From Alphaproteobacteria bacterium (GTDB taxonomy: Bacteria; Pseudomonadota; Alphaproteobacteria; GCA-2731375): DNA of 64,000 bases. Below the pieces are notes generated by a model. That model saw only the letters and a list, made by a program, of their open reading frames with translations. It was not told the origin of the DNA and searched no databases. Position 1 is the first letter of the stretch; each line of letters opens with the position of its first letter. This document shows positions 1-21,095 of the stretch, piece after piece. A program made the position numbers and the translations under genes. The stretch lies in contig CBDDBZ010000032.1 of NCBI GenBank assembly GCA_965225945.1, forward strand, positions 64,001 through 128,000. Direction: 5' to 3'.

Positions 1-342
1 GCGGCGGCAGCGATGGGGCGAGAGCAGGTTGTTCTCGCGCATCACCCGGAGCACCCGCTTGCGGGAAACACGGATGCCACGACAGACCCGAAGCCGAGCC
101 CAGACCTTGCGGTGTCCCTCGCCCTCCCAGGGGGATGCCTCCAGGTCGGCCTCGATGGCCACCAGCAGAGCCTCGTCCGAGATCGAGGGCTTCGGTCCCC
201 GGCGCTTTGCTGGTGGGCGCTCAGCGGTGGCCTGCTGCCGGGATTTCATGGCGTAGAACGAGGAACGGGCAAAACCCCAGGCCGCACAGACCCGCTGGAG
301 GCCGTAGGCCAAACCCGTGCCGGGAGAGGTGGCGGCACTCAT
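1..342 (-). CDS. IS3-family transposase OrfB, N-terminal part (truncated by window edge)
   Basis: Manual translation MSAATSPGTGLAYGLQRVCAAWGFARSSFY...GEGHRKVWARLR...RKRVLRVMRENNLL, typical of the IS3 OrfB HTH region. Confidence 0.8.
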   Translation of the reverse strand, partial: MSAATSPGTGLAYGLQRVCAAWGFARSSFYAMKSRQQATAERPPAKRRGPKPSISDEALLVAIEADLEASPWEGEGHRKVWARLRVCRGIRVSRKRVLRVMRENNLLSPHRCRR

Positions 343-770
343 CGCCGCGACCTCCGCCGCCCCAAAGGGCCGGACGTCTCCGTCTTGGCCTCCAGCAGTT
401 CCACCTGCATGATCAACTCCCCGATCCGCTTCATGGCGATGTCCAGTTCCGCCTTTACCGGATCGCCCTTGCGTTCCTTGAGCGAGGCATCGATCCCGGC
501 GATCGCCTTCTCACGCCACTGCTCGAGCCGGAAAATCTCCACGCCCAACTGCCGCGACAAAAGTTCCACCGGCTCGCCACGCAAAAGCCGCAGGGCAACC
601 TCACGCTTGCGCGTCACCGTCCACCGCTGGCCAAGTCCCAGCGGGCCTGCCGGCGAAACCTGGCCCGGGGAAAACGTGGACGAGCCAAGCTCGCCCTCGT
701 TTACCACAGGCCCATCAACAGCAACTTTGTTTTCAAAATTGTCGGTCATGTTCCGGTCCTCCTTGGACAC
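339..770 (-). CDS. IS3-family transposase OrfA
   Basis: 143-aa ORF with HTH (LRLLRGEPVELLSRQLGVEIFRLEQW) and a coiled-coil C-terminus. Confidence 0.8.
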   Translation of the reverse strand: MSKEDRNMTDNFENKVAVDGPVVNEGELGSSTFSPGQVSPAGPLGLGQRWTVTRKREVALRLLRGEPVELLSRQLGVEIFRLEQWREKAIAGIDASLKERKGDPVKAELDIAMKRIGELIMQVELLEAKTETSGPLGRRRSRR

Positions 771-815
771 TTCGATTAAACCAATTCTGTGTCCAAGGAA
801 ATCGGGTCCGACTCA

Positions 816-1336
816 CCGTTTCCTCAGCCCTCGGCCTCGATGCCCGCCAATGGCGGTGAAAGCTCGATCGGCTCAGCCCCATCAGATCGCACATCCGTCC
901 CATGCTCAATCCGCCTTGCCGCCGCGACCCGGCCCGGACGAGGCCGAAGACGCGCTCCCGCCAGAGCGACCGTTCGCTCCGCGGCAGCTCTCCGAGAGCC
1001 GCAAGGCTTGCCTGAAAAAATCCGCTTCCAAGGCCTGCTGGCCGACCTTCCGCTCCAGCTCGGCGATCCGCCGGCGCGCCAGGCTCAGGGCATCCGGCCG
1101 GACCGCCGGAACAGCACTTTCGGACCCGGCGCGGAGGCATCGCGCCACTCGTAGAGCAGCTTGCGCCGGACCTCGAGCTCGCGTGACAGCGCCGAGACGT
1201 TCTCGCCCGACTCCATCCGCGCCAGCGCCGACAGCTTGAAGTCTCGGCTGAAACGCCGTGCACCTTTTCGTTCCATCAGTTCCTCCTCGGAAGAACTGTC
1301 ACTCATTTCTCTGTGTCAGGACAGGGGTGCGGTCCA
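816..1336 (-). mobile_element. Second IS3-family element, interrupted by the IS3 at 1-815; OrfA frameshifted
   Basis: Terminus TGGACCGCACCCCTGTCCTGACACA from 1336. OrfA pieces are 1085..1306 (RRFSRDFKLSALARMESGENVSALSREL) and 906..1148 (RRIAELERKVGQQALEADFFRQAL). The OrfB start (MCDLMGLSRSSFHRHW) is cut at 816. Confidence 0.8.
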
Positions 1337-1916
1337 TTCTGCTTTTTGGTCCGTTCCGCCCAATAAAGTACAATGACCCCTTTTCTCCCGCAAATCCGTG
1401 AGGAACCTTTTTTCTGTGGACTTCACCGAAATGGATCTTTTCACCTATGCTGATAGCCACCCCGCCTATGGCGAACTCGCGGTCATGCCGAAGGGCGGCT
1501 GTCCCCTGTTCCTGCACCCGGATTACGTGATTGTGGCGGGCGGGTAATTAGTGGCCTAGCCAGGATGATGCAACATGTATAGATCAACAGCGCTGATGAT
1601 TGGAACTTGTGTCTCTATTTTATCGTTCGGAATCGTGAATGCTCAGGAAAAGACCAGGGAGTATCGGGCCGATTCTATTGAAGTTCTTTCGAACAGCGGA
1701 ACGATGAGGTATCGGAGCGATTATGTTGTTACACAAGTCACCGGGGTTGTTGGGAAAGCGGGGATACCTGATGTTATTAAACAAGGAGATACCATTACCG
1801 TTCAGGATAGAACCCTTAGGGCCAGCTTCATTTTTGTGACCGAATGTTTGGTGGAAATGAAATGGGGCGGACAGGTACTTTGTGCTAAAGGGCAAATACA
1901 ATGCCTGGTAGTCGAA

Positions 1917-3367
1917 GGGGATGTCCCGGGCTCTGTTGAAAAGCTGAAGTAGGCGTCGTCCGCCTGGAGCCGCTAGGCTCTGGGTGCTGATTCCATCAAG
2001 GAGAACGACGCCATGACCAAGACTACACGCAACGACCGTTCCTCGGAACCATCCTGTCGGCTCTTGCCATCGATGCCGGAGGCCTTCGACGATCTGCGCA
2101 TGAGCGTCGATCGCTTCTGCCTTTTGGCGGGCCTCGAGTCTTTGAACGAGATGATGTCGGCGGACGCGGAAGCCTTGTGCGGTTCGCGCCACGCCCGCTC
2201 GGGCGAGCGCAAGGGCCATCGATGGGGCACGACCCGGAGCGAGATCGCCTACCACGGCGGCAAAGTGAAGGTCGAGCGCCCTCGGGTGCGGGACTTCGCG
2301 GGTCGGGAGATGAGCCTGCCGAGTTGGGAGCTGCTGTCGGAACCCGAACTCTTGCAAGCCTGGGCGATGAATCTGATGGTGATCAACGTCTCGACCCGCA
2401 AGTATGCCCGCGCGGTGCGCCTGCCGGACGATGCGGGCGGCGATCTGCCGGCGGCATCGGGTGACGCAACCTCGAAGTCGGCGGTCTCGCGCCGTTTCGT
2501 GGCGTTGACGCGAAGCAAGCTGAAGGCCTGGCTGGCGAGCCCGCTCGACGATCTCGATCTCGTGGTGCTCCAGATCGACGGGCTCCATGTCGGCGATCAC
2601 CTGATGGTGGCGGCGATCGGCATCGACACCGGCGGCGCGAAGCACGTGCTGGGCCTGGCCGAGGGCGCGACGGAGAACGCGGCCACGGTGCAAGCCATGC
2701 TCGACAACCTGATCGAGCGCGGTCTCGATCCCGAACGGCCTCGGCTCTACATCGTCGACGGCGCCAAGGCGCTCTCGAAGGCGATCCGGCGGACCTTCGG
2801 GCGGGCGGCGGCCCTCCAGCGCTGCCAGGTGCACAAGGGGCGCAACATCACGGACCGGCTGGACGAGAGCCTCCATGCCGGCGTCAGGAAGGTCTTGCGG
2901 CAGGCCTGGCAGCAGGACGACGCGGCCAAGGCCGAACGGCTCTTGCGCAACCTCGCCCGCCGTCTGGAGCATGACGCACCCGGCGTCTCGGGCTCGATCC
3001 TGGAGGGCCTGGACGAGATCCTGACCGTGATCCGGCTCGGCCTCCCGCCGCAACTTCGACACTCGCTGGCTTGCACCAACGCCATCGAGAACGCGATCGG
3101 CACCGTCCGGACGGTGCAGCGGAACGTCAAGCGCTGGCGCAACGCCGAGATGGCGCTGCGTTGGACCGCCGCCGGCCTCTTGGAGGCGCAAAAGACCTTC
3201 CGCCGCCTCAAGGCCTACCGCCAGCTCCCCGTCCTTGACGCCGCCCTGCGGGAGGCGGTGAGAAAGGCCGGAGCAAAGTCCGTCATTGAAGACATCGAGG
3301 TGGCCGCGTAGCCTCTCGATCAGACGATGCCTATCTCGCACTTTTCAACATTGGGCGGGACATCGCC
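1917..3367 (+). mobile_element. IS256-family insertion sequence
   Basis: IRs GGGGATGTCCCGGGCTCTGTTGAAAAG / CTTTTCAACATTGGGCGGGACATCGCC. 8-bp target duplication TAGTCGAA at 1909-1916 and 3368-3375. Confidence 0.92.
2013..3311 (+). CDS. IS256 (mutator-type) DDE transposase
   Basis: Motifs LQIDG, IVDGAKAL, QRCQVHK, TNAIE, FRRLKAY. Confidence 0.92.
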   Translation: MTKTTRNDRSSEPSCRLLPSMPEAFDDLRMSVDRFCLLAGLESLNEMMSADAEALCGSRHARSGERKGHRWGTTRSEIAYHGGKVKVERPRVRDFAGREMSLPSWELLSEPELLQAWAMNLMVINVSTRKYARAVRLPDDAGGDLPAASGDATSKSAVSRRFVALTRSKLKAWLASPLDDLDLVVLQIDGLHVGDHLMVAAIGIDTGGAKHVLGLAEGATENAATVQAMLDNLIERGLDPERPRLYIVDGAKALSKAIRRTFGRAAALQRCQVHKGRNITDRLDESLHAGVRKVLRQAWQQDDAAKAERLLRNLARRLEHDAPGVSGSILEGLDEILTVIRLGLPPQLRHSLACTNAIENAIGTVRTVQRNVKRWRNAEMALRWTAAGLLEAQKTFRRLKAYRQLPVLDAALREAVRKAGAKSVIEDIEVAA

Positions 3368-3766
3368 TAGTCGAAAGGCTCGAAGACATACCATCCGATA
3401 CAAATGACTATCGTTTATGGATCACTGTTGATCATTGCCGGCCATCCTTCTTAAAAGGAACGAGATGAGGCGTTGGTAAAACCAAAAAAAGGGGCCATTG
3501 TTTCCGTTCTCGCCTCTCGGAAATCTGGACCGGCCCGCACCCAATTCCTCACGGACGGTTGCGTCGCGCCATGTCCGTGTCACTGACTGCGGCGAGCGAC
3601 GAGTGCCAGTCACGACTCGAATGAGCGACGCGACGCGCCACCTCCACACGGCATCGGCTTGCCTCGCCGGCGATCGGCGGCCGCGACGTGGCGGGCGACT
3701 TCGTCGATTGGGGGGCGTCGCCGCCCCTCCCCGCGCGCCCATGCGGGGAAGGGCGAGGTACCAAAT

Positions 3767-5419
3767 CTAAGTCGAATACTGCGCGAAGACCTGGGTGCCG
3801 GCGCGGGCGCGGTAGTCGGTCTTGATGTTGACGAGGGCGACCATGCCCTCGTCGACCTTGGCCTGCGCGCGCTCCAACGCCGGGCGGATCTCGGCCGGCT
3901 CCTCGACGTATTCACTGTAGCAACCGAGCGCCTCGGCCACCTTGTCGTAGCGGGTGTAGCCGAGTTCGCGGCCGGGCTTGACCCCGTCGGGATCGGCCGT
4001 CCAGCCGCCGTTGAGGCTGATCACCACCAGCACCGGGATCTTGTGGCGAACGGCGGTATCCAGCTCCATCGCGTTCAGGCCGAAGGAGCCGTCGCCGTGC
4101 ACCACGATCACCTGGGTGTCCGGCTTCGCCACCTTGGCCCCGAGGCCGAAGGGCAGGCCCACGCCCATGGTGCCGAAGGGGCCGGAATTGAGCCGGTGGC
4201 CCGGCGTATAGGTCGGCATCGACTGGCGGCCGTAGTTCAAGATTTCCTGACCGTCGACCACCAAGATGGCGTCGCGGTCCATGAAATTCTTCACCTCCTC
4301 ACACAGCCTGAGCGGATGGATCGGCACCTCGTCCGAGACCGTGTTGGCGCCGGGCCGCGAACGCTTCTCCGCCTCCTGCTCGCCCAACTGCTTGCGCCAG
4401 GCCTGGTAGGTGTCGTTGTTCACCTTGCCGTCGAGCCTCTCGATCACTTGGTTCAGCACCGCCTTGGCATCACCGACGATGCCGATGTCGATCGGCCGCG
4501 GGCTGGTGCTCACCTCCTCCTCGTCGATGTCGATGCGCACGATGGTGGCGTCCGGGTTGAAGCGCGGTGGTGCTGCGTGGCCGATGATGTAGTTCATCCG
4601 GGTGCCGACCACCATGATCAGGTCGGCCTCGCGGAAGGCGGTCGAGCGCACGGTCATGTAGCAGTAGGGGTGATCCTCGGGGATCACGCCGCGGCCCTGG
4701 GGCGTGGTGTAGAAAGGGATGCCGGCCACGTCGACGAAGGCGGCGAGCTCCGCCGAGGCATCGGACCACAGGATGCCGCCGCCGGAGACGATCACCGGCC
4801 GCTCGGCCTTGGCGAGTGCCTCGACCAGTCGTTCGATCAACGCCGGATCGCCGTGCGGGCGGGCCCTGGCGAGCGGGCGGCCGGAGAGCGTCCAGTCGAT
4901 CTCGCTCTCGTCGATCTTCTGGTAGAGCACGTCGCCCGGCAGGTCGAGATAGACCGGCCCGGGCTTGCCGGCCATCGCCTTCTGGAAGGCGACGTTGACC
5001 ATTTCCGGAATGCGCTTGGGCTGATAGACCCGCTCCGCCCACTTCACGCAGGGCCGCATGAAGGCGACCTGGTCGATCTCCTGAAAGACCTGGCGGCCAT
5101 AGGTGCCATAGGGGCTGGAGCCGCCGATCGCCACCACCGGCACGCAGTCGACCAGCGCGTTGGCGATGCCGGTGACCAGGTTGGTGACGCCGGGTCCGCT
5201 CGCGGCCATGCAGACGCTCGGCTTGTTCAACAGCCGGCTATAGGCCTGGCTCATGAAGGCGGCGGCCTGCTCGTGGCGGACGTCGAGCGGGCGGATGCCC
5301 TCCTTGATGCAGGATTCCTCGGCGAGCAGCATCGGCCCGCCCATGATGAAGAACAGCGTATCGACGCCTTCGCGCTTCAGCGCCTTGGCGAGAATTTCCG
5401 AGCCTGTGAGTTCCGCCAC
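3767..5419 (-). CDS. ThDP-dependent enzyme, oxalyl-CoA decarboxylase / 2-hydroxyacyl-CoA lyase family
   Basis: VRHEQAAAF, SGPGVTN, GPVYLDLP, HRLNSGPFGTMGVG and the GDGSFG ThDP motif. Adjacent to a formyl-CoA transferase-like gene. Confidence 0.85.
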   Translation of the reverse strand: MAELTGSEILAKALKREGVDTLFFIMGGPMLLAEESCIKEGIRPLDVRHEQAAAFMSQAYSRLLNKPSVCMAASGPGVTNLVTGIANALVDCVPVVAIGGSSPYGTYGRQVFQEIDQVAFMRPCVKWAERVYQPKRIPEMVNVAFQKAMAGKPGPVYLDLPGDVLYQKIDESEIDWTLSGRPLARARPHGDPALIERLVEALAKAERPVIVSGGGILWSDASAELAAFVDVAGIPFYTTPQGRGVIPEDHPYCYMTVRSTAFREADLIMVVGTRMNYIIGHAAPPRFNPDATIVRIDIDEEEVSTSPRPIDIGIVGDAKAVLNQVIERLDGKVNNDTYQAWRKQLGEQEAEKRSRPGANTVSDEVPIHPLRLCEEVKNFMDRDAILVVDGQEILNYGRQSMPTYTPGHRLNSGPFGTMGVGLPFGLGAKVAKPDTQVIVVHGDGSFGLNAMELDTAVRHKIPVLVVISLNGGWTADPDGVKPGRELGYTRYDKVAEALGCYSEYVEEPAEIRPALERAQAKVDEGMVALVNIKTDYRARAGTQVFAQYST

Positions 5420-5498
5420 CGTTTCCTCCCTCGTGACAGTGAATGGATCACCGCGCGCGAGTTCGCGCGCGGCGGTGAACAGCTATCGGGGGCGACGG

Positions 5499-6728
5499 CT
5501 AGATCGCGCCCTCGGAGCGGAGCGCCGAGACATCGTCCTCGCTCATGCCCAACCATTCGTCGAGCACGCTCTCGGCGTGCTGGCCCAGCAGCGGCGCCGG
5601 CGCCAGCGGCACCTCGGAATTGGACATCTTCACCGGCCAGGCGGGCATCTTGAAAGAGCCCCGGGTCGGATGCTCGATGGTCTGGAAGATACCGCGCCGT
5701 TCCAGGTTCTCGTCGCCGTGGAGTTCGGCGGTATCGAACACCGCGCCCGCGGGGATGCCTGCCGCGCCCAGGATCTCCATCGCCTCGCGCTTGCTCCGCC
5801 GACGCGTCCACTCGCTCAGCATGGCGTCGATCTCGGCCTCGCGCTCCAGCCGCTTCGCCGGCGTCGCGTAGCGCTCGTCGGCCACCAGCTCGTCCCGCCC
5901 CAGGACCTTGCAGAGCCGTTCCCAATGATGGCTTCCGGCCCGCGTCGTATAGATGTAGACGTAGTCGTTCGGCCCGCCCGGAGCGCAAGGGAAGATGCCG
6001 CTCGGCGCGTTGCCGCCGGTGATCACCTTGGCGCCGGTGCGGGGCGCCGGCTTGCCGGTCTGGGCCTGCACCGCATAGGCGATCCGGGTGTATTGCAGCA
6101 TCGCGTCCTGCATCGCGATCTGAATGCGCTGCCCCTCGCCGGTGGACTTGCGCTGATAGAGCGCGCCCAGAATGGAGATCGCGGCGAGCATGCCGGTTCC
6201 GGTATCGCCGATCGTGGCGCCGGGCTTCATCGGCGGCCCGTCCGCCTCGCCGGTGATCGAGAGCACGCCACCCACCGACTGGCCGATCATGTCGAAGCTG
6301 AGGAAGTTCTCGAACGGGCTGCCCTCGGCGAAGCCCTTGACCTGGGCATAGACGATTGCGGGATTGATCGCCTTCACCACGTCATGGCCCAGCCCCAGGC
6401 GTTCGATCACGCCGGGGCCGAAATTCTCGATGAAGACGTCGGCCTCGGCCACCAGCTGCTTCACCAGCTCGAGGCCGCGCTCGCTCTTCAGGTTGGCGGT
6501 AATGCTCTTCTTGTTGGCGTTGAAGAGCAGGAAATAATAGGAGTCGATCCCCTGATTCTCGGAGGAGGCGAAACGACCCTGATCGCCGCCCTTGGGGTTC
6601 TCCACCTTGACGACCTCGGCACCGAGCCAAGCCAGCGCCTCCGTGCAGGAGGGCCCGGCCTCGAACTGCGTCAGGTCCAGGACCCGGACGCCGGAAAGGG
6701 CGCGCTCGGCACCGTTCGTCGCGTTCAT
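5499..6728 (-). CDS. frc: Family III CoA-transferase (formyl-CoA transferase/CaiB-BaiF)
   Basis: VLDLTQFEAGPSCTEALAWLGAEVVKVE, NANKKS, ENFGPG, IGDTGTG, NDYVYI. Closely resembles Frc. Confidence 0.8.
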   Translation of the reverse strand: MNATNGAERALSGVRVLDLTQFEAGPSCTEALAWLGAEVVKVENPKGGDQGRFASSENQGIDSYYFLLFNANKKSITANLKSERGLELVKQLVAEADVFIENFGPGVIERLGLGHDVVKAINPAIVYAQVKGFAEGSPFENFLSFDMIGQSVGGVLSITGEADGPPMKPGATIGDTGTGMLAAISILGALYQRKSTGEGQRIQIAMQDAMLQYTRIAYAVQAQTGKPAPRTGAKVITGGNAPSGIFPCAPGGPNDYVYIYTTRAGSHHWERLCKVLGRDELVADERYATPAKRLEREAEIDAMLSEWTRRRSKREAMEILGAAGIPAGAVFDTAELHGDENLERRGIFQTIEHPTRGSFKMPAWPVKMSNSEVPLAPAPLLGQHAESVLDEWLGMSEDDVSALRSEGAI

Positions 6729-6834
6729 GTCGTCATTCCCCTAGGTCCGCGCGGAAAATTGGCGCTCCCGCGCCGCGCGCATCTCGGCGATCATATCGGA
6801 ATCCCGCCGCCAAATTCTAGCCGGCGTCAGAAAT

Positions 6835-7752
6835 TCAGTCGCCGAGGCGGGTGCCCGGCGTCAATCCGGCGGATTCGGCGAATTCCATCGCCGAAATCTT
6901 AGCCCCGCCGCCGTGCCGTACCCGTTTCACCAGGATGCCGCCGCGCCCGGCGACGACGGTGAAGCCTGCCTCGCTCACCGAACAGATCTCGCCCACCCGG
7001 CCCGAGGCCTCGGCGCGGGCGGCATCGAATATCTGCAGCCGCTCGCCCTCATGGGTGGTCCAGGCGCCGGGTTGCGGATTGGCGCCCCGGATCAGGTTGT
7101 AGACCTCGGCCACGGAACGGCCCCAGTCGATCTCGACGTTCTCGGGCCGACACCAGCTCTCGTAGGTGGCGCGGGAATGGTCCTGAACGATGCGGGGCGC
7201 GGTCCCGGCGCGAATCAGGTCGATCGCCTCCATCACCGCTTGGACGCCGAGTGGGAAGATCTTCTCGAAATAGACCGTGCCGAGGGTGTCGTCGGGGCCG
7301 ATCTCGACCTCCTTGCGGAGCAGGATCTCGCCTTCGTCGAGGCCGTCGTCCGGCCAGAAGATGGTCAGGCCGGTCTGCTCGGCGCCCCAGATGATCGGCC
7401 AGTTGATCGAGCTCGGGCCTCGGTGCAGCGGCAGCAACGAGGGATGGAAGCATATCGAGCCGTGGGTCGGGATCTCGCGCGCCGCCTCCGGCACGAAGAC
7501 GGTGGTGAAGGCCAGCACCATCAGATCCGGCTCCGAGGCCCGGAGCTGGCCGAGCACCTTCTCGTCGCGGTAGCTCTCGGGCTGGGCGAGGGGCAGGCCA
7601 TGGGCCAACGCCGCCTCCTTGACCGGATCGAGCCTGCCGCCCTTGCCGTCGGGCGCGGTATGGACCGCGACGACGTCGTCCTGGCCCTGTTCCAGGATCG
7701 CCTCCAGGCAGGCTTTGCCGAAGGCTTGTTGACCGTTCAAGATCAGACGCAT
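6835..7752 (-). CDS. Formyltransferase (Fmt superfamily), ALDH1L/10-formyl-THF dehydrogenase N-domain-like
   Basis: GQQAFG, FHPSLLPLHRGPSSINW, FWPDDGLDEG, and the C-terminal Fmt domain YNLIRGANPQPGAW. Confidence 0.85.
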   Translation of the reverse strand: MRLILNGQQAFGKACLEAILEQGQDDVVAVHTAPDGKGGRLDPVKEAALAHGLPLAQPESYRDEKVLGQLRASEPDLMVLAFTTVFVPEAAREIPTHGSICFHPSLLPLHRGPSSINWPIIWGAEQTGLTIFWPDDGLDEGEILLRKEVEIGPDDTLGTVYFEKIFPLGVQAVMEAIDLIRAGTAPRIVQDHSRATYESWCRPENVEIDWGRSVAEVYNLIRGANPQPGAWTTHEGERLQIFDAARAEASGRVGEICSVSEAGFTVVAGRGGILVKRVRHGGGAKISAMEFAESAGLTPGTRLGD

Positions 7753-7777
7753 CACCTCTCCTCCCATGCTTCGGCGC

Positions 7778-8689
7778 TCAGACCGAGCGATACTCGCCCT
7801 CCGAGCGAGGCTTGCCGTCCGTCGCCGCCCGCCCGGTCTCCACCATGTGGATCAAGTGCGAGAGGACGGAGCGTTCCGCCGCCTTGTGCAGATACTCGGG
7901 CACGTCGGTGTACATCCGGGCCACCATGTCCGGGATTCGCCCGTTTCCGTCGGCCAGGCAGGCGAGGATCTGCACTTCCCGCCTCTCCCGGTGGGCGATC
8001 AGGCCCCGGACGTGGTCGAGCGGGCGCTGAATTGCCGGCCCGTGCGTCGGCCAGTAGATCCGCTCCTCCCGCCGGGTGAGCTTGCGGAGGCTTTCCACGT
8101 AGTGCCTCATGTCGCCGTCGGGCGGCGAGACGATGGTGGTCGACCAGCCCATGACGTGATCGCCGGGAAACAGCGTCTCCTCCTCCCTGAGCGTGAAGCA
8201 GAGATGGTTCGAGGTATGGCCCGGGGTATAGACCGCCTCCAGGGTCCAGCCGTCGCCCGAGACGACGTCGCCGTCGGTCAGGCGGACGTCGGGATCGAAA
8301 GCCATGTCGCCGCCCTCCTCGACGTCCTCGTGTCCACCCTCGGCGTCGGGCCGGCCGGAGCCGTGCGGGCCGAAGCCGTAGGTCTTGGCGCCCGTCGCGG
8401 CCTTGAGTGCTGCGGCCGCCGGTGAATGGTCGCGGTGGGTGTGGGTGATGACCAGGTGGCTCACCGTCTCGCCGTCGAGTGCCGCGAGCAGCGCCTCGAC
8501 GTGCGCGGAATCGTCCGGTCCCGGATCGATCACCGCGACATCTCGCCCGGCGCCGACGATGTAAGTGCCGGTGCCGTGGAGGGTGAAGGCGCTCGAGTTC
8601 CGGGCCACGACGCGGCGGATCAGCGGCGTCACCCGGGCGGGCTCGCCGTATTCGAACTCCAGCTCCCGGTCGAAGGTCAACTCGGCCAT
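7778..8689 (-). CDS. MBL-fold metallo-hydrolase (LACTB2-like, C-terminal winged helix)
   Basis: THTHRDH, TPGHTSNH, GDHVMGWST, PTHG. Confidence 0.85.
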   Translation of the reverse strand: MAELTFDRELEFEYGEPARVTPLIRRVVARNSSAFTLHGTGTYIVGAGRDVAVIDPGPDDSAHVEALLAALDGETVSHLVITHTHRDHSPAAAALKAATGAKTYGFGPHGSGRPDAEGGHEDVEEGGDMAFDPDVRLTDGDVVSGDGWTLEAVYTPGHTSNHLCFTLREEETLFPGDHVMGWSTTIVSPPDGDMRHYVESLRKLTRREERIYWPTHGPAIQRPLDHVRGLIAHRERREVQILACLADGNGRIPDMVARMYTDVPEYLHKAAERSVLSHLIHMVETGRAATDGKPRSEGEYRSV

Positions 8690-8695
8690 GCGCCG

Positions 8696-9793
8696 CTACT
8701 CCTCGGCTTTGGCGCGGTAGTCGCGCAAGACGTTCGGGTCCGGATCGGCGCCCAGGCCCGGGCCGTCCGGCACCCGGAACTCAGCCCCCGACGGGAGATT
8801 TAGATCGCCGAAAGGATAGGCCTCCAGGTCGAGATAGATGTGCTCGATCAGGAAGGCGTTGGGGTCCACCGCCAGGAGATGCAGCGTGGCCAGGAAGCCC
8901 GGCCCGAAATAGGGCGAATGCGGCACGCAACTGACGCCCGCCGCCTCGGCCAGCACCGCCACCTTGCGATATTCGGTGATTCCGCCGACCTTGGTGACGC
9001 TCGGCTGGGCGTAAGCGACCGCGCCGAAATCGAACATTTTTTGGAACTCCCATGCCGTGCAGGCGTTCTCGCCGGCGGCGATTGGAATCCCCGACTCGCG
9101 CTGCAATTCGGCCAGCGCATCGAAATCCTCCGGCGGGAAAATCGGCTCCTCCAGCCAATAGAGGTCGAATTCGGCGAGCCGCGCCGCCGCCTCGCGCGCC
9201 TCGCGGGGCGACCAGGGGCAGTTGGTGTCGAGCATGATGGCGACGTCGGGGCCGACGGCCTCGCGCGCCGCCGCCACTTCCCTGGCCTCGGTCTCGTGCA
9301 GCTTGATGTGGCGATAGCCGCGGCCGAGCGCGTGGGCGCAGCGCTCCGCCACCACCTCGGGGTCCTGGTACTTGAAGAGGCTCGCGTAGGCCGGCATGGT
9401 CTCGCGCCCTCGCCCACCCAGAAGCTCGTGCACCGGCTTGCCGGCGGCCTTGCCGGCGATGTCCCAAAGCGCGATGTCGACGCCGCCGATCGCGAACATG
9501 GTGACGCCGTAGCGACCCCAGAGATGGTTCGCCTTCTGCAAGCGCCGCGAGATCCCGGCGATGTCGCGGGCATCCTGGCCGATCAGGGCCGGCGCCACCA
9601 TGTGGTCGAGCGCGGCCTTTGTGGCGTGCGCCGCGCCATAGCCGAAGGCGTCGCCCCAGCCGGAGATCCCGGCATCGGTATCGATCCGCATGAAGACGTA
9701 GTCGAGCGTCCGCCAGTCCCGCCAGTCCTTCGTTGCCCCGGAGGAGGTGAAGGGTATCTCGATCAGCACGCTTTCGACGTTTTCGATTCTCAT
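8696..9793 (-). CDS. Mandelate racemase/muconate lactonizing (enolase superfamily) enzyme
   Basis: VDIALWDIAGK, KLH, MLDTN, WLEEP, AAGEN, PGLG. Confidence 0.85.
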   Translation of the reverse strand: MRIENVESVLIEIPFTSSGATKDWRDWRTLDYVFMRIDTDAGISGWGDAFGYGAAHATKAALDHMVAPALIGQDARDIAGISRRLQKANHLWGRYGVTMFAIGGVDIALWDIAGKAAGKPVHELLGGRGRETMPAYASLFKYQDPEVVAERCAHALGRGYRHIKLHETEAREVAAAREAVGPDVAIMLDTNCPWSPREAREAAARLAEFDLYWLEEPIFPPEDFDALAELQRESGIPIAAGENACTAWEFQKMFDFGAVAYAQPSVTKVGGITEYRKVAVLAEAAGVSCVPHSPYFGPGFLATLHLLAVDPNAFLIEHIYLDLEAYPFGDLNLPSGAEFRVPDGPGLGADPDPNVLRDYRAKAEE

Positions 9794-9925
9794 GGGCGAA
9801 GCCTCAGGTCGCGATGCGGTAGCGGGCGAACGGCCTCCCTGGTTGGCGCCGCATAAAAGCAGAAGCGGCGGGCCGGGGCAAAGCCGGGGGGAAGGGCCGG
9901 CATCGGGGACTTTCAATCCAGGGTC

Positions 9926-10630
9926 TCAGAGGCACCGATCGTGCGGCCGGTCGAACAGCGGAAACAACAACCAGCCACCGACGAAGCCGGCGATGTGCAC
10001 CTCCCAGGCGATCGCGTGCACGCCGCCATCGGGGCTGAGGCCGGTCACGCCGATGAACAGATTGACGCCGATGAAGACCGTCGCCGCCATTACCACCGGG
10101 CGCCGATCGCGCGCGCGGGGAAGGTCGCCAACGCGTTGCGGCGGCCCGGCGGCCATCATGCGAAGGATCGCGCCGAAAAGGCCGGCAATGGCACCCGACG
10201 CCCCCACCACCAACACCGGCGCCGTCGTCACGAGATAGACGATGAAGGTGCCCAGCAGGCCGATCAGTCCCGTCACCAAATAGAACGACAGCATGCGGGC
10301 GCCGCCGATGCGGCGCTCGAGGCCGGTGGCGAAGGCGAGCACGAAACCCATGTTGACCAACAGGTGCAAGGCGTTGGCGTGGAGAAAGGCGTAACCGATG
10401 AGGGAGAGCCAGGGTAGCGGGTCCAGCGGCAAGGCCAGCGTGCCGTCGGCTAAGAGGAAATGGACCGGCGAAAAGCCTCCGTGGTAGAGGATCGCCCGGT
10501 CCCAAGCCTCCGGCAGCGCCAAACGGAGGAGATGCACGGCGAGGCAGACGGCGATGATCCCGCCCGCCACCGGCATGATATTGAAGGCGGGTGGCGAGGG
10601 CTCGTCGCCTCGGGCAGGCACGAAACGCAT
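9926..10630 (-). CDS. Rhomboid-family intramembrane serine protease
   Basis: FLHANALHLLVNM, GASG, AWEVHIAGF and multiple TM segments. Confidence 0.9.
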   Translation of the reverse strand: MRFVPARGDEPSPPAFNIMPVAGGIIAVCLAVHLLRLALPEAWDRAILYHGGFSPVHFLLADGTLALPLDPLPWLSLIGYAFLHANALHLLVNMGFVLAFATGLERRIGGARMLSFYLVTGLIGLLGTFIVYLVTTAPVLVVGASGAIAGLFGAILRMMAAGPPQRVGDLPRARDRRPVVMAATVFIGVNLFIGVTGLSPDGGVHAIAWEVHIAGFVGGWLLFPLFDRPHDRCL

Positions 10631-10661
10631 TTCGATCCTCGGCTGATCGGCAACGACGGCG

Positions 10662-10931
10662 CTAGTGGATGAAATCCAACATATGGTACCCCTACGACGG
10701 TTTCGCGAGCTCGTCCGGAAAGGCGCCCGGTGCGCCGTGATGCGGGCGTATCACAAGCGCCGGGCAACGCGTCCGGCGGGCTCGGGAAGCCGCCCTTCGG
10801 GTCCCATATCCTGGCTTCTCGGGGCGTCGGGCACCCTTGGCGATGTGCCGGCATCGCCGGCGGGCGCCCTCCTGCCGAGAAACCAGGATATGGGATCGTA
10901 GGGGTACCATATGCTGGATTTCATCCACCAG
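10662..10931. mobile_element. MITE-like 270-bp element with 36-bp terminal inverted repeats
   Basis: CTAGTGGATGAAATCCAACATATGGTACCCCTACGA (10662-10697) and its reverse complement at 10896-10931 differ at 2 positions. Internal inverted repeat 10802-10822/10875-10895. No ORF of note. Confidence 0.7.
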
Positions 10932-10958
10932 CATAGGCCGAGTGGTCGAGGGAACAAG

Positions 10959-11712
10959 CTTGCCTATCCGGTTATCACCCACACCCACTATATGTAGTGT
11001 GCACCCATTTTCCTGAGTAAAGCTCGGTGCAGGTCGAAGCGGAGATATCTCCGGCGATGCCGAGCAGGGACTCGGACGGCATTGTAGCGCCTTTTAGGCG
11101 ACACTTTAGCGTGGTGGAAATCCTAATCATTGAGTCGGATTTGGCAAAATGCCACGTTGCATAAAGGACCGTCACTTCATTGAAATTTATCTGAAATCGG
11201 AGGTGAACGACACCGATGGAATATTCCAGGAAATCAGAGCTTCATTGAATTGTAGGATTCGAGTGCCGGATTATTCACAAATAGCTCTGTGAACTGGTTT
11301 TCAAGTTCGCTCAATACGTCATATGAAGTAAACGGATTGAGGATCACGTTCTTGCGTGTCGCTTCGTCTTCGCTGCGACTCAAAACGCGCAGGAGACTAA
11401 CAGGCGCGGACGGGTTCTTCGCAACGATTCGTGCCAGCGCGTCGCTTTCTTCGACTAGTGCCGTCAATCGCTCAGACGATGTCGTTTCATCAGCAGCTTC
11501 CCGTCTGGCCGTGGGTTTCTTCGTTTTTCCCTTGGTCGCCACCGTTCCGTCCCCCGATGTTAAGTACGTGACGTGAATTAAACTCCGGTTCGGTTTTCAG
11601 AACAATCAAGAATTAGCCGGATCGCCTCCTCAATGCGCCTGCGCGGCCCTTGCCTGCAGTCCAAGGAGACACACTACATATAGTGGGTGTGGGTGATAAC
11701 CGGATAGGCAAG
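10959..11712 (-). mobile_element. Non-autonomous IS1595-family (ISSod11-type ends) cassette with passenger gene, copy 1
   Basis: About 44-bp IRs CTTGCCTATCCGGTTATCACCCACACCCACTATATGTAGTGTG. 8-bp target duplication GGAACAAG at 10951-10958 and 11713-11720. No intact transposase. Confidence 0.85.
11234..11542 (-). CDS. Passenger protein with leucine-rich-variant (LRV)-like helical repeats
   Basis: Repeats ARIVAKNPSAPVSLLRVLS / TRKNVILNPFTSYDVLSEL / LFVNNPAL match the LRV pattern (vaxNPntPxxxLxxL). GGGGAC upstream of the GTG start. Confidence 0.65.
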   Translation of the reverse strand: MATKGKTKKPTARREAADETTSSERLTALVEESDALARIVAKNPSAPVSLLRVLSRSEDEATRKNVILNPFTSYDVLSELENQFTELFVNNPALESYNSMKL

Positions 11713-12107
11713 GGAACAAGGAGGCCGGATGCGATTATTCCATTGCGCGGCGCGCGCTCTGGGCTTTGCCGCGGTTGTCACGGGCGCCATCTTCGGCCGC
11801 CCCGGCACCCGCCGGAGGGGCGCGCCCGCCGCGCGCCATGATCGATGCCACCGAGTACCCTTGGCGTGCCTTCGGCCGGGTCAACCGGCAGGGACGGGGG
11901 TTCTGCACCGGCGTCTTGATCGCGCCCGAGGTCGTGCTGACGGCCGCCCATTGTCTCTATGACACCAAGCGGCGTGCTTGGGTGGAGCCGCGTTTCATGC
12001 ATTTCGTCGCCGCCTATCAGAAGGGCCGCTTTCTCTTCGACTCCAAGGTCGCCCGCTTCGAGATCGGCAAGGGCTACGAGCCCGGGGGCGAGCGGCGAAG
12101 TTCGATC

Positions 12108-13983
12108 CTTGCCTATCCGGCAGTACACGACTCGTTCATGTTGGCTTTGGCCTGGGCACCTGGACTGGTGGTTTTCCGGGGACGAGGAAACGAATCAGCT
12201 CAATGGCTTGACGCCTGTCGATAGGATTGACGAGCTGTCGCCTTATCCACTCGAAACCGTATCGGAAGATGGATTTTGCCATCCTTTTGTGGGTTTTGAG
12301 GCGGATCGGCTCGGCCTCGTGGAGCCAATCGCCGACTTTGTGCGCCCAGCAGAAGGTGATGGAAAGGACGGCGGTGAGCTTGGAGATGCGCTCCGGGTCG
12401 GTCATGTGGGTGTCTTCGAGGTTGAAGCCGCGGGTTTTCAAGGCGGCGAAGAGGGTCTCGATTTGCCAGCGCTGGGCGTAGATGGCCAAGGCCTCCTCGG
12501 GCGCGTCGTTGGTCAACGACGATCAACAGTTCGCCGGCTTGAGATGGAGCGCGCGACGAAGACGGGCCTGGCCTTGGGTTTTCTTCCGAGAGGCGCCTGG
12601 CGTTGGAGAGGATGCGGCTTTCCCCGGGTTTGAGGTCGCGAAACAGCTCCCTCGCCTTGACCATGGACCACGCGTGTTGGCGATCTTGATGTTGGATCGG
12701 ATGCGGATGTGAAAGGGGATGGCCTTTTCCTGCAACCATGCCAGCCAGGCGTCGCCGATGAATTCCCGGTCGGCCAGGAGGCTGGCGATCTTGTCGACCC
12801 CGAAGAGCCGGAGGACGTGTTCGAGGATCGCGATCCGCTCCTTGGTATTGGAATTGCCCGCCTTGTCGAGCACCCGCCAGCACACGGGAGCGATGGCGCG
12901 GTTGACGATGCCGATCATCAAGATGTTGACGTCGCGGCGACCCGCGCCAGTTGGTCCGGTCCATGGTCAGCCGCCACGGCCCCGCCTGGAGCCCCATCAT
13001 CGCAACCAGGAACTCGGCGAGGCGATCGTAATCGAAATCGACTTGCTCGAAAAACCGTTGCACCGATAGTTGGAGCTGGATCGCGCGCGCCCCGTGGCAG
13101 GCCAAGTGAGAGAGGTTCACCGTCGAAGACCAAGACGCAAAGGCTCTCAACGGCTCTTGCGAAAGGCGAAGCCGCATCGTAGGTCTCACGCAGGGCGTTG
13201 ATCGGGTTGTTCATGATTTCCCTCTTGACTCGTCGTGGAGTGAATCGGGTCAACTTACGTAAATGCCGTCGTGTACCATGCCCACACCCACTATATGTAG
13301 TGTGCACCCATTTTCCTGAGTAAAGTCGGTGCAGGTCGAAGCGGAGATACGATGCCGAGCGACTCCCATTGTAGCGCCTTTTAGGCGACACTTTAGCGTG
13401 GTGGAAATCCTAATCATTGAGTCGGATTTGGCAAAATGCCACGTTGCATAAAGGACCGTCACTTCATTGAAATTTATCTGAAATCGGAGGTGAACGACAC
13501 CGATGGAATATTCCAGGAAATCAGAGCTTCATTGAATTGTAGGATTCGAGTGCCGGATTATTCACAAATAGCTCTGTGCTGGTTTTCGCGCTCAATACGT
13601 CATATGAAGCGGATTGAGGATCACGTTCTTGCGTGTCGCCGTCTTCGCTGCGACTCAAAACGCGCAGGAGACTAACAGGCGCGGACGGGCTTCGCAACGA
13701 TTCGTGCCAGCGCGTCGCTTTCTTCGACTAGTGCCGTCAATCGCTCAGACGGTCGTTTCATCAGCGCTTCCCGTCTGGCCGTGGGTTTCTTCGTTTTTCC
13801 CTTGGTCGCCACCGTTCCGTCCCCCGATGTTAAGGGCGTGACGTGAATTAAACTCCGGTTCGGTTTTCAGAACAATCAAGAATTAGCCGGATCGCCTCCT
13901 CAATGCGCCTGCGCCGGCCCTTGCCTGCAGTCCAAGGAGACACACTACATATAGTGGGTGTGGGTGATAACCGGATAGGCAAG
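12108..13983 (-). mobile_element. IS1595-type cassette copy 2 (degenerate; left IR split by an IS4 copy)
   Basis: CTTGCCTATCCGG at 12108-12120 and the rest of the element at 13281-13983. 8-bp target duplication GTTCGATC at 12100-12107 and 13984-13991. Confidence 0.85.
12121..13280 (-). pseudogene. Degenerate IS4-family copy (many small indels relative to 14462-15684)
   Basis: Near-identical to the intact IS4 but split into ORF fragments 12136..12516, 12523..12921 and others. Confidence 0.85.
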
Positions 13984-14461
13984 GTTCGATCGAAAGCGCG
14001 AGCGACTGGGCGATCCTGCATCTGGCGCGCGCGGCGGGTCCCGAGGTCGGCTATCTGGGGGTCGCGCACCTCCGCCCCGGGGACGCGCTGGCGCCGAAGC
14101 CCATCTTCACCCTCGCCGGCTACGGCCGCGACCGGCCCTATGCGCTGTCCGCCCACCGGAACTGCGCGTTGCTGCGTTGGGACGGGGCGGCACCGCTGGT
14201 GCACCACGATTGCCGGGCTGAGCATGGCACCTCGGGCGCGCCGATCATCCGGCGCCTCGGGCGGGACTATGTCGTGGTGGCGCTCCACGTCGGCCGGGGC
14301 GAGCTCGGGAGCCGAGAGATCGGCGCCGCCGTGCCCTCCGGCGTCTTCTTCGAGGCGGCGCTCGGGGCGACCGGTCGGCGCGCGCGGCGATCCCCGGGGC
14401 TGGGCCTCTTCATGGCCGGCAGCCGCGCGAAGTGATGCCAACCGAGGTAATACCAACGGAC

Positions 14462-15684
14462 CACAGTACACGACTCGTTCATGCTGGCTTTGGCCTGGGC
14501 ACCTGGACTGGTGGTTTTCCGGGGACGAGGAAACGAATCAGCTCAATGGCTTGACGCCTGTCGATAGGATTGACGAGCTGTCGCCTTATCCACTCGAAAC
14601 CGTATCGGAAGATGGATTTTGCCATCCTTTTGTGGGTTTTGAGGCGGATCGGCTCGGCCTCGTGGAGCCAATCGCCGACTTTGTGCGCCCAGCAGAAGGT
14701 GATGGAAAGGACGGCGGTGAGCTTGGAGATGCGCTCCGGGTCGGTCATGTGGGTGTCTTCGAGGTTGAAGCCACGGGTTTTCAAGGCGGCGAAGAGGGTC
14801 TCGATTTGCCAGCGCTGGGCGTAGATGGCCAAGGCCTCCTCGGGCGCGTCGTTGGTCACGACGATCAACAGTTCGCCGGTCTTGAGATGGAGCGCGGCGA
14901 CGAAGACGGGCCTGGCCTTGGGTTTTCTGGCCTCCGAGAGGCGCCTGGCGTTGGAGAGGATGCGGCTTTCCCCGGGTTTGAGGTCGCGAAACAGCTCCCT
15001 CGCCTTGACCATGCGACCACGCGTGTTGGCGATCTTGATGTTGGATCGGATGCGGATGTGAAAGGGGATGGCCTTTTCCTGCAACCATGCCAGCCAGGCG
15101 TCGCCGATGAATTCCCGGTCGGCCAGGAGGCTGGCGATCTTGTCGACCCCGAAGAGCCGGAGGACGTGTTCGAGGATCGCGATCCGCTCCTTGGTATTGG
15201 AATTGCCCGCCTTGTCGAGCACCCGCCAGCACACGGGAATGGCGATGGCGCGGTTGACGATGCCGATCATCAAGATGTTGACGTCGCGGCGACCCAGCCG
15301 CCAGTTGGTCCGGTCCATGGTCAGCCGCCACGGCCCCGCCTGGAGCCCCATCATCGCGACCAGGAACTCGGCGAGGCGATCGTAATCGAAATCGACTTGC
15401 TCGAAAAACCGTTGCAGGCGCCGATAGTTGGAGCTGGATCGCGCGCGCCCCGGAAAGTGGCAGGCCAAGTGAGAGAGGTTCACCGTCCGGGCGACGAACA
15501 CGCCGAAGACCAAGACGCAAAGGCTCTCCAGACGGCTCTTGCGAAAGGCGAAGCCGCATCGTAGCGTCTCACGCAGGGCGTTGATCGGGTTGTCTCGCAT
15601 GATTTCCCTCTTGACTCGTCGTGGAGTGAATCGGGAATCCTACAACCTTTTCAACGTCCTACGTAAATGCCGTCGTGTACCATG
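14462..15684 (-). mobile_element. IS4-family insertion sequence, intact
   Basis: IRs CACAGTACACGAC / GTCGTGTACCATG. 9-bp target duplication CCAACGGAC at 14453-14461 and 15685-15693. Confidence 0.9.
14479..15600 (-). CDS. IS4-family DDE transposase
   Basis: MDRTNW, LLADREF and the YAQRWQIETLF (YREK-type) motif, followed by LKTRGFNLEDTH. Confidence 0.9.
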   Translation of the reverse strand: MRDNPINALRETLRCGFAFRKSRLESLCVLVFGVFVARTVNLSHLACHFPGRARSSSNYRRLQRFFEQVDFDYDRLAEFLVAMMGLQAGPWRLTMDRTNWRLGRRDVNILMIGIVNRAIAIPVCWRVLDKAGNSNTKERIAILEHVLRLFGVDKIASLLADREFIGDAWLAWLQEKAIPFHIRIRSNIKIANTRGRMVKARELFRDLKPGESRILSNARRLSEARKPKARPVFVAALHLKTGELLIVVTNDAPEEALAIYAQRWQIETLFAALKTRGFNLEDTHMTDPERISKLTAVLSITFCWAHKVGDWLHEAEPIRLKTHKRMAKSIFRYGFEWIRRQLVNPIDRRQAIELIRFLVPGKPPVQVPRPKPA

Positions 15685-15712
15685 CCAACGGACATAAGTC
15701 CTGGCCGCCCCG

Positions 15713-16948: not shown

Positions 16949-16959
16949 CGCCGGTCTCC

Positions 16960-18078: not shown

Positions 18079-18095
18079 CTGCTCACTCCATCCCG

Positions 18096-19433
<1,338 letters not shown>

Positions 19434-19576
19434 CTGTGCTCTCCCGACGGTGCGGTATTTGGGCTGGCCGCAGCCGATCCGCGCGAGCGGCAAAATCACG
19501 GCCCTTGCGTCGGCACTCTAACAGCCCCGAAAATGGGGAAAAAGCGAAACCACGCGGAGCTTCGGGAGAATGAAAG

Positions 19577-21013: not shown

Positions 21014-21095
21014 GCGCGGAATGTGGTAGATATATCGAGGCGCGCGCGCTGCTTCGCGGAGGATCCGCGCCCTTGAGACCGAGGTACCGACGGGC

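Follow-up and report, generated by a model that had tools for sequence, protein, structure and literature searches.

A stand-alone ALDH1L1-N-like formyltransferase encoded with formyl-CoA enzymes in Alphaproteobacteria is a candidate 10-formyl-tetrahydrofolate:CoA formyltransferase

The stretch of DNA analyzed in this study (64,000 nucleotides, hereafter the window; positions 64,001 to 128,000 of contig CBDDBZ010000032.1, alphaproteobacterial assembly GCA_965225945.1) encodes a stand-alone formyltransferase (FT) of 305 amino acids on its minus strand (6835–7752). FT resembles the N-terminal domain of the 10-formyl-tetrahydrofolate dehydrogenase ALDH1L1 (ALDH1L1-N) and lies next to genes for two enzymes of formyl-coenzyme A (formyl-CoA) metabolism. 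We propose that it is a 10-formyl-tetrahydrofolate (10-formyl-THF):CoA formyltransferase (10-formyl-THF + CoA <-> formyl-CoA + THF), and that its net role is to prime and replenish the cycles of Frc-type CoA-transferases. Judged from sequences and their genomic context, this reading is given a probability of roughly 55%. At a His/Ser/Asp site of the ALDH1L1-N type, the formyl group would shuttle between THF, where it is bound at N10, and free CoA, where it is bound at the pantetheine thiol, and FT would thereby join the folate one-carbon pool to pathways driven by formyl-CoA.

The reaction itself is known already. LctF, a stand-alone Fmt-like protein, was shown in 2025 to form formyl-CoA from 10-formyl-THF and CoA in vitro (PMC11730586), and the same transfer onto CoA was proposed from structures for HypX's N-terminal domain (PMC6802093). 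In ALDH1L1, the N-terminal domain uses His106, Ser108, and Asp142 to transfer formyl from 10-formyl-THF onto the thiol of a 4'-phosphopantetheine (PMC6802093). What would be new is an ALDH1L-N-like formyl-THF:CoA formyltransferase of primary metabolism that is widely conserved with formyl-CoA cycles and with Fhs, the enzyme that makes 10-formyl-THF from formate and ATP. No literature linking such a formyltransferase to oxc, frc, fhs, or ALDH1L was found in a search that did not extend to subscription journals and bioRxiv supplements.

The FT translation contains the motifs GQQAFG, VHTAPD, GSICFHPSLLPLHRGPSSINW, and IFWPDDGLD. All of them had been quoted in an earlier note on this DNA, made from the letters alone, which considered FT to be closer to ALDH1L1-N than to methionyl-tRNA formyltransferase (Fmt). 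This placement held in every comparison of sequences. The best match in the PDB (phmmer) was the hydrolase domain of ALDH1L1 with 190.6 bits, followed by Fmt (153.7 bits), ArnA (93.8 bits), and HypX (34.6 bits). Similarly, BLASTP gave 41% identity over 250 amino acids to the ALDH1L-type protein P0248, which has an Aldedh domain, vs. 31% to the Fmt of the source genome. Pfam assigned Formyl_trans_N and Formyl_trans_C only, which agrees with the note's claim that no acyl carrier protein (ACP) domain is fused to FT. Among the NCBIfam models FT fell below every cut-off; the top model was TIGR00460 for fmt (155.5 bits, cut-off 201.5). Neither an ACT domain (Pfam) nor a match to TIGR00655, the PurU model, at E ≤ 0.001 was detected.

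For the phylogeny, a quick IQ-TREE search was run on 90 sequences with PurN of the source genome as outgroup. The set comprised full-length representatives of 50% identity clusters from an exhaustive HMMER search, FTs labeled according to gene context, fusions, two proteins of the ALDH1L type, the first domain of a nonribosomal peptide synthetase (NRPS), the Fmt of the source genome, and two def-fmt fusions; 20 of the 86 full-length representatives were excluded as they matched the query only partially. A clade of 47 Fmt sequences was separated from all others with an SH-aLRT (Shimodaira-Hasegawa-like approximate likelihood ratio test) support of 100, and FT and ALDH1L both fell on the non-Fmt side. 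The window FT, all context-labeled FTs, and the fusions formed a core clade of 20 sequences (SH-aLRT 95), outside of which the ALDH1L sequences were found. With a support of 93, the N-domains of the ALDH1L-type proteins P0248 and P0256 were sister to the free-standing representative P0215, which suggests a derivation of the animal ALDH1L N-domain from this thiol-directed, non-Fmt group of FT-like proteins.

The residues at the active site follow the same division. His108, Ser110, and Asp144 of FT, which correspond to His106, Ser108, and Asp142 of ALDH1L1, were invariant in the 120 closest homologs, in all 16 context-labeled sequences, and in the two ALDH1L sequences. The Fmt Asn, located two positions ahead of the catalytic His and taken to be catalytic in N-formyltransferases, was present in 47/47 sequences of the Fmt clade. 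It is Cys106 in the window FT, Cys in all 120 close homologs, Cys or Gln in the 16 context-labeled sequences, and Ile in ALDH1L. Furthermore, the Fmt loop was five residues shorter outside Fmt (median 14 vs. 19). Its G[RK]G motif, presumably used for binding of the tRNA acceptor stem, occurred in 42 of 50 sequences with the Fmt Asn vs. 4 of 157 without it. The median net charge was -12 for FTs and 0 for Fmt. By these criteria of sequence, FT and Fmt are distinct families, although the sources currently name FT 'methionyl-tRNA formyltransferase'.

A related domain opens the 1519-amino-acid NRPS P0179. It is 39% identical to the window FT, carries an HPSLLP motif and a Glu at the position of the Fmt Asn, and fell into the non-Fmt half of the tree. 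These features mark it as a thiol-directed formylation domain and not one of the Fmt type.

The gene neighborhood of FT was explored in 80 public genome contigs with homologs 58–70% identical to the window FT. They came mostly from marine Alphaproteobacteria (Nisaea, Thalassobaculaceae, Magnetovibrio, Thermohalobaculum, Limibaculum, and SAR116), with one SAR324 member. Nisaea denitrificans DSM 18348 (L015), Thermohalobaculum xanthum (L025), and Limibaculum sediminis (L048) are examples with an oxc-frc-FT-fhs operon. The earlier note had expected linkage to genes of formyl-CoA metabolism, and this was found: frc lay directly upstream of FT on the same strand in 54 of the 80 loci, fhs adjoined FT in 58, and at least one of the two did so in 63. 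The most frequent arrangement, with 49 loci, was a gene for a thiamine diphosphate (ThDP)-dependent enzyme followed by frc, FT, and fhs, the ThDP position being undetected or off the contig in six of them. Five loci showed frc-FT with no fhs visible, seven fhs-FT (Nisaea type), and two FT-fhs on a contig truncated upstream. A row in which FT is followed by genes for an acyl-CoA dehydrogenase, a hydratase, and a 3-hydroxyisobutyrate dehydrogenase, with hemB divergent, accounted for 11 loci; six had another arrangement or too short a contig. In 12 sampled loci, all 12 frc genes exceeded the cut-off of TIGR03253 for true Frc. The accompanying ThDP gene encoded true oxalyl-CoA decarboxylase (Oxc) in five and, in seven, a protein like 2-hydroxyacyl-CoA lyase (HACL) below all cut-offs. 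Together with the gene pair of the window, FT therefore accompanies at least three pairs of formyl-CoA enzymes, namely Oxc/Frc, HACL-like/Frc, and HACL/Frc-like. FT was never found beside def among the annotated loci, and no gene for a carrier protein was present in the annotated canonical FT loci. When metagenomes were scanned with a fusion protein as query, 11 loci with FT were obtained; FT was followed by a separate fhs in 11/11, and frc lay upstream in 10/10 informative ones.

In marine Alphaproteobacteria, the usual operon order was tctC-tctB-tctA-(oxc or HACL-like)-frc-FT-fhs. The tctCBA genes stood beside the operon in five annotated loci (L016:807-11652, L168:865-10708, L004:379-10719, L160:446-10240, and L025, with the transporter genes downstream). 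A regulator of the GntR/FCD type was found in two loci and a Usp gene, following the operon, in two. With this tripartite tricarboxylate transporter in place of an oxalate/formate antiporter, the substrate would be imported and formate would stay inside the cell. The seven HACL-like ThDP proteins encoded ahead of true frc (L004:4864-6597, L072:4714-6372, L081:4696-6432, and four more) resemble PRK05858/HACL with 434–498 bits vs. a cut-off of 587; either they are Oxc that has diverged, or their lyase activity is directed at a different 2-hydroxyacyl-CoA.

Two further arrangements were observed outside the usual operon. In genome G003, which belongs to the same family as the source genome, hemB and the dehydrogenase gene lie 173 bp apart with no FT between them (L227:1461-3771). 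This contrasts with L020, L053, and similar loci, where FT stands between the divergent hemB and the row of acyl-CoA dehydrogenase, ECH_2, and 3-hydroxyisobutyrate dehydrogenase genes, and would fit an insertion or a loss of FT at this spot. The genome G312 has FT but lacks a true Frc; there, FT precedes a co-oriented gene of the D-2-hydroxyacid dehydrogenase family (L233:6111-7993). A gene of the MR/MLE type, 54% identical to that of the window, lies about 4 kb downstream of FT, a faint echo of the window set.

Among 59 longer FT-related proteins (protein clusters), 35 were clean FT-Fhs fusions of 860–925 amino acids. Their linkers were variable and rich in Pro, Ala, Ser, and Lys, and both full domains were confirmed by Pfam in three of three checked. 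The fusions are known from protein records alone; in 11/11 metagenome FT loci, FT and fhs were separate genes. The protein P0160 (920 amino acids), from a eukaryotic transcriptome record, combines an FT domain (1–291), a Pro-rich linker, and a complete ThDP enzyme of the Oxc/HACL clade (368–902; 458 bits to 8vzj, 455 bits to 7ayg) with no Frc attached; bacterial contamination of the transcriptome is possible. No fusion to an Aldedh domain occurred among the 59. Seven apparent Frc-FT fusions (P0151, P0156, P0172, P0174, P0177, P0178, and P0180) were rejected as frameshift artefacts; their Arg-rich scrambled stretches leave them as evidence for adjacency only.

Co-occurrence was assessed in a sample of 400 genomes of the same class, including the unpublished genome G240. 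FT was present in 31 genomes at E ≤ 1e-60 and in G166, where it is cut by the contig end, giving 32. True Frc was found in 37 genomes and in 28 of the 32 with FT; nine genomes had Frc without FT, and 359 had neither. The four FT genomes that lacked a full true Frc were G375 with a truncated frc, G283 and G312 with a HACL of the type found in the window, and G143, with a completeness of 81%. Of the 29 loci that this sample yielded for FT, 16 had frc as a neighbor, 14 had fhs, and 19 had either of them; the adjacent cases covered at least 12 family codes. As related genomes are not independent, the co-occurrence and adjacency numbers overstate the significance.

The genes next to FT in the window were described in the earlier note as encoding a formyl-CoA-transferase-like protein and a ThDP-dependent Oxc or HACL. 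Three co-oriented genes indeed fill positions 3767–7752 of the minus strand, and the assignments to the HACL/Oxc clade and to Frc-like proteins stood; the ThDP enzyme is nearer to HACL/HACS than to true Oxc, and the CoA-transferase is not a true Frc. The ThDP enzyme P0003 (3767–5419, minus strand; Pfam TPP_enzyme_N/M/C) matched the bacterial HACL/HACS structures 8vza/8vzc/8vzf with 359.9 bits, and Oxc from E. coli (2q27) and O. formigenes (2c31) with 266.7 and 239.7 bits, respectively. It remained under all NCBIfam cut-offs (PRK05858 409.3 bits, HACL 350.9, Oxc 333.3/310.6) and failed the true Oxc model TIGR03254 with 310.6 bits vs. a cut-off of 739.4. Its orthologs, with 60–76% identity, occurred in 10 of the 400 sampled genomes. 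The family III CoA-transferase P0002 (5499–6728, minus strand; CoA_transf_3, 367 bits) failed the Frc cut-offs as well, with 399.6 bits for NF003809 (442) and 382.4 bits for TIGR03253 (504.2); its best PDB match was YfdW from E. coli (276 bits). Orthologs of P0002 with 52–67% identity were paired with P0003-type genes in six of nine regions fetched from other genomes, with neighbor genes that differ among genomes. The order FT, Frc-like, HACL in the window differs from the usual one, and the partners are different paralogs.

Elsewhere in the source genome, canonical fmt lies on contig C39 beside truA and def, next to which the note had suggested looking for it, purN follows purM on contig C11, and a lone fhs is found on contig C25. 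Fmt, PurN, and FT were the only members of PF00551, and PurU was not found. On contig C37 (locus L195:6704-11508, minus strand), the genome also has a true oxc with 984 bits and a true frc with 701 bits. These are followed, where others have FT-fhs, by a gene for an AMP-forming acyl-CoA ligase (FadD7 family, 427 bits, below cut-off), possibly a synthetase that makes oxalyl- or formyl-CoA at the expense of ATP. As a replacement of FT at the same position, the ligase is a single case confined to this contig: 12 frc regions from 10 genomes scored as having Frc and no FT contained no ligase, fhs, or complete FT, the region of G166 ending inside the FT gene. Directly upstream of oxc-frc on C37, transposases of the REP-associated, IS5, and IS256 types were observed.

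Since FT keeps the catalytic site, has neither a carrier domain nor a nearby carrier gene, and is linked both to enzymes acting on free formyl-CoA and to the one that makes 10-formyl-THF, transfer to CoA appears the likeliest reaction. Homology, conserved residues, gene linkage, fusions, and co-occurrence are the observations; CoA as the acceptor, the reversibility of the transfer, and its direction are what we infer here. The interconversion of formyl-CoA and 10-formyl-THF put forward in the earlier note as a possibility is well supported by the gene context and has precedents in LctF and HypX.

The proposed direction follows from the cycle itself. An Frc-type CoA-transferase would spend formyl-CoA on activating an acid, and the ThDP lyase of the Oxc/HACL type would regenerate it. 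Formyl-CoA would be catalytic, and a supply would be needed at start-up, after hydrolytic loss, and upon withdrawal of acyl-CoA. Because formyl-CoA is regenerated in each turn and only formate leaves, such a cycle would give no spare formyl-CoA and could not start by itself. In the paper on E. coli YfdE, that enzyme is described as the priming enzyme of the Frc/Oxc cycle, and a half-life of 1.9 h is given for formyl-CoA in quenched reaction mixtures (PMC3720670). With Fhs charging THF at the expense of formate and ATP, FT would hand the formyl group to CoA, and the pair would act as a formyl-CoA synthetase with THF as catalyst. The net role in Frc-type cycles would be formyl-CoA supply, and formate, the cycle's own product, would be recycled. 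This reading accounts for the gene order frc-FT-fhs, for the FT-Fhs fusions as consecutive steps, and for FT travelling with Fhs; as it is fused to Fhs or adjoins it, FT would work alongside Fhs and not as its replacement. In the window, FT would serve a second, non-oxalate pair, the Frc-like transferase and the HACL-type lyase, acting on some 2-hydroxy acid.

A wider proposal is made more tentatively, at somewhat less than even odds. Fhs and FT may constitute a natural formyl-CoA synthetase in many bacteria, mostly as separate proteins and in at least 35 clusters as a fusion of about 880 amino acids, priming both Frc-Oxc and Frc-like/HACL cycles. The wider non-Fmt group may be the stock from which the animal ALDH1L N-domain came.

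Several points weigh against a formyl-CoA-supplying CoA formyltransferase. The argument for the direction is stoichiometric reasoning and not data, and hydrolysis energies make the supply direction mildly uphill under standard conditions, the formyl transfer being near equilibrium and slightly favoring 10-formyl-THF. The window has no fhs beside FT, the only one of the genome being that on C25. Seventeen of the 80 loci have neither frc nor fhs beside FT, and in 11 of these FT is followed by the acyl-CoA dehydrogenase gene in a row resembling valine catabolism. HypX-N, one of the precedents, is only distantly related to FT (34.6 bits; template modeling (TM) score 0.67–0.70; 15–16% identity). 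The predicted FT model, with a mean pLDDT of 95.3, matched ALDH1L1-N (TM 0.83–0.87) and Fmt (TM 0.87–0.93) about equally in a fold search, so that the fold cannot discriminate between them. PurU was found in none of the 32 FT genomes vs. 86 of the 368 others, and in two families (f64 and f69) one genus had FT and another PurU.

The earlier note had favored the opposite net direction, formyl-CoA + THF -> 10-formyl-THF + CoA, by which one-carbon units from oxalate or 2-hydroxy acids would enter the folate pool, sparing ATP-dependent Fhs. Such a drain shares all of the molecular evidence (PDB matches, tree, linkage, and residues) and would be the mildly favorable direction by the same hydrolysis energies. 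In P0160, which has no Frc, FT would act on the product of the lyase. Furthermore, the ligase gene ending the oxc-frc operon on C37 indicates that an ATP-derived thioester supply exists, and in genome G161 a ligase-type gene weakly similar to that ligase (29% identity) stands beside HACL. The note's view that Fhs is dispensed with was not supported by the comparison: fhs adjoins FT in 58/80 loci and is fused to it in 35 clusters, and fusions usually link consecutive, not parallel, steps. By stoichiometry, a Frc cycle needs every formyl-CoA for the next acid, so that each molecule removed would cost one thioester; draining formyl-CoA into folate would save no ATP, since the next acid needs another thioester. 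A net drain is thus regarded as unlikely, and the physiological rationale of the note is probably reversed; draining would come naturally only where the acid is activated by a ligase, as may be so for the eukaryotic fusion P0160. Alternatively, FT may simply buffer the formyl pools of folate and CoA, with the flux set by the context.

Improbable as well, yet a live rival, is the reading of FT as a 10-formyl-THF hydrolase, a functional analog of PurU that would regenerate THF and release formate and whose linkage to frc and fhs would reflect shared formate and folate housekeeping. The isolated ALDH1L1 N-domain has this activity, the best solved relatives are named for it ('hydrolase domain'), and the exclusion of PurU, with its complementary genera, points the same way, as does the finding that four of five checked FT genomes, like the source genome, hold just PurN, Fmt, and FT of PF00551. 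The exclusion would fit a PurU-like hydrolase or any consumer of 10-formyl-THF that releases THF, and much of it may be lineage structure. As FT together with Frc, or with spontaneous formyl-CoA hydrolysis, would yield the same net effect, the anticorrelation does not discriminate. A plain hydrolase standing beside Fhs or fused to it would amount to a futile ATP-burning cycle, which counts against it; it would leave unexplained the presence of true Frc in 28/32 FT genomes and the fusion to Oxc/HACL, and FT lacks both the ACT domain and the TIGR00655 match. A protein-bound phosphopantetheine (a carrier in trans, as in ALDH1L1) or another thiol in place of free CoA is a very unlikely acceptor. 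The use of carrier-bound pantetheine by ALDH1L1-N (PMC6802093) and the FT-like first domain of the NRPS P0179 favor it, but the window cluster and the annotated canonical loci are devoid of carrier genes, and the neighboring enzymes all act on free CoA thioesters. Least probable of all is that FT formylates Met-tRNA, as a second enzyme besides Fmt, or N-formylates some amine metabolite. The two-domain architecture, the fold similarity to Fmt, the top NCBIfam model, and the database names speak for it; the score below the fmt cut-off, the position outside the Fmt clade, the missing Asn and loop motif, the acidic charge, the canonical fmt-def pair in the genome, and the absence of FT beside def in annotated loci speak against it.

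Among known systems, the ALDH1L1 N-domain shares with FT the two-subdomain fold, the His/Ser/Asp site, the loss of the Fmt Asn and Fmt loop, and the non-Fmt side of the tree. In contrast to ALDH1L1, FT is bacterial and stand-alone, has no carrier or aldehyde dehydrogenase domain, and lies outside the ALDH1L branch; its presumed acceptor is free CoA, whereas ALDH1L1 uses a tethered pantetheine. LctF, from the lactacystin cluster of Streptomyces lactacystinicus, catalyzes the reaction proposed for FT and is likened to it by reaction (PMC11730586). It belongs to secondary metabolism, feeding a polyketide synthase loading module, whereas the operons of FT are catabolic and also contain frc, oxc/HACL, and fhs. 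The HypX N-domain, for which the same reaction is proposed in the synthesis of the CO ligand of [NiFe]-hydrogenase (PMC6802093), has a formyltransferase fold. Unlike FT, it is fused to a decarbonylase domain resembling enoyl-CoA hydratase and has CoA as a prosthetic group. Fmt has the same Pfam architecture and fold; FT differs from it in the HMM cut-off, the Asn, the loop motif, the clade, and the lack of def linkage. PurU shares the PF00551 fold and consumes 10-formyl-THF, and it never co-occurs with FT in the 400-genome sample; it is a hydrolase without a thiol acceptor, with an N-terminal ACT domain and TIGR00655, neither of which FT has. YfdE, the acetyl-CoA:oxalate CoA-transferase of the frc-oxc operon in E. 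coli, is an accessory priming gene (PMC3720670), the role proposed here for FT with Fhs. It is an unrelated family III CoA-transferase that draws on acetyl-CoA, whereas the FT route would draw on the folate pool and ATP.

If the proposal is correct, a folate-linked supply of formyl-CoA would fill a gap in Frc/Oxc cycles, for which a source has been explained only for E. coli with YfdE. It would do so for many oxalate-degrading marine Alphaproteobacteria, and the annotation as 'methionyl-tRNA formyltransferase' would be corrected. Formate and formaldehyde pathways built on carboligation by HACL or Oxc are limited by the poor activation of formate to formyl-CoA. As a pair that some organisms already have in fused form and that occurs next to genes for HACL-type enzymes, Fhs and FT would provide a ready-made engineering module. 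Additionally, as the nearest relatives found for the ALDH1L N-domain are free-standing, non-Fmt, FT-like proteins, the placement would support a pantetheine thiol as the native acceptor of that domain.

In the window, the trio is part of a compact row of minus-strand genes spanning 3767–10630. The row begins upstream with a rhomboid-family protein (9926–10630), followed by a member of the MR/MLE enolase superfamily resembling acid-sugar dehydratases (8696–9793; Pfam MR_MLE_N and MR_MLE_C). The latter has a probable start at MRIENVES, an open reading frame (ORF) that is open back to 9916, and scores under every NCBIfam cut-off. The next gene encodes a hydrolase of the MBL fold with a winged-helix tail, similar to LACTB2 (7778–8689; Pfam Lactamase_B and BLACT_WH; 129 bits to PDB 4ad9). 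It ends 25 bp upstream of FT, and a function as thioesterase is possible. The ORF of FT extends over 6835–7767, with the Met of MRLIL at 7752 as the probable start, as in the identical database protein P0008. From the MR/MLE gene through the ThDP gene, the intergenic gaps measure 6, 25, 106, and 79 bp. There is no space for an ACP or other carrier gene between the five cluster genes, and the small flanking ORFs had no Pfam match.

The MR/MLE and MBL genes stood beside FT in none of the 80 public genome loci. Transposases flank the cluster on both sides, one of the IS256 family on the plus strand (2013–3311; NF033543, 221 bits, cut-off 150) and one of the IS4 family on the minus strand (14479–15600; NF033591, 264 bits, cut-off 152). 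As the block is flanked in this way and FT was not found in three of three sampled genomes of the same family, the block looks acquired. No riboswitch or RNA element exceeded the threshold in positions 1–16000 of the window, apart from one chance-level miRNA match, or in eight canonical FT loci, apart from one tRNA. A promoter and terminator scan of 3300–11200 gave counts no different from those of shuffled sequences.

Beyond the IS4 element, an unrelated block of nitrogen-compound genes adjoins (15713–22259). It encodes a 707-amino-acid protein with a C-terminal part of the allantoate amidohydrolase type (297–705) and an N-terminal part of 300 amino acids without assignment, as well as an AptA-type omega-aminotransferase (752 bits), an amidase, and a PotF/PotD-like binding protein. 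A 408-amino-acid ORF at the start of the window (13–1239, plus strand) had no match in Pfam or NCBIfam. Within a stretch of low GC content (10–14 kb, GC 0.57–0.61), an ORF of 152 amino acids (11766–12224, plus strand) showed nothing but a short trypsin-like match (35 bits) and is possibly the remnant of a gene.

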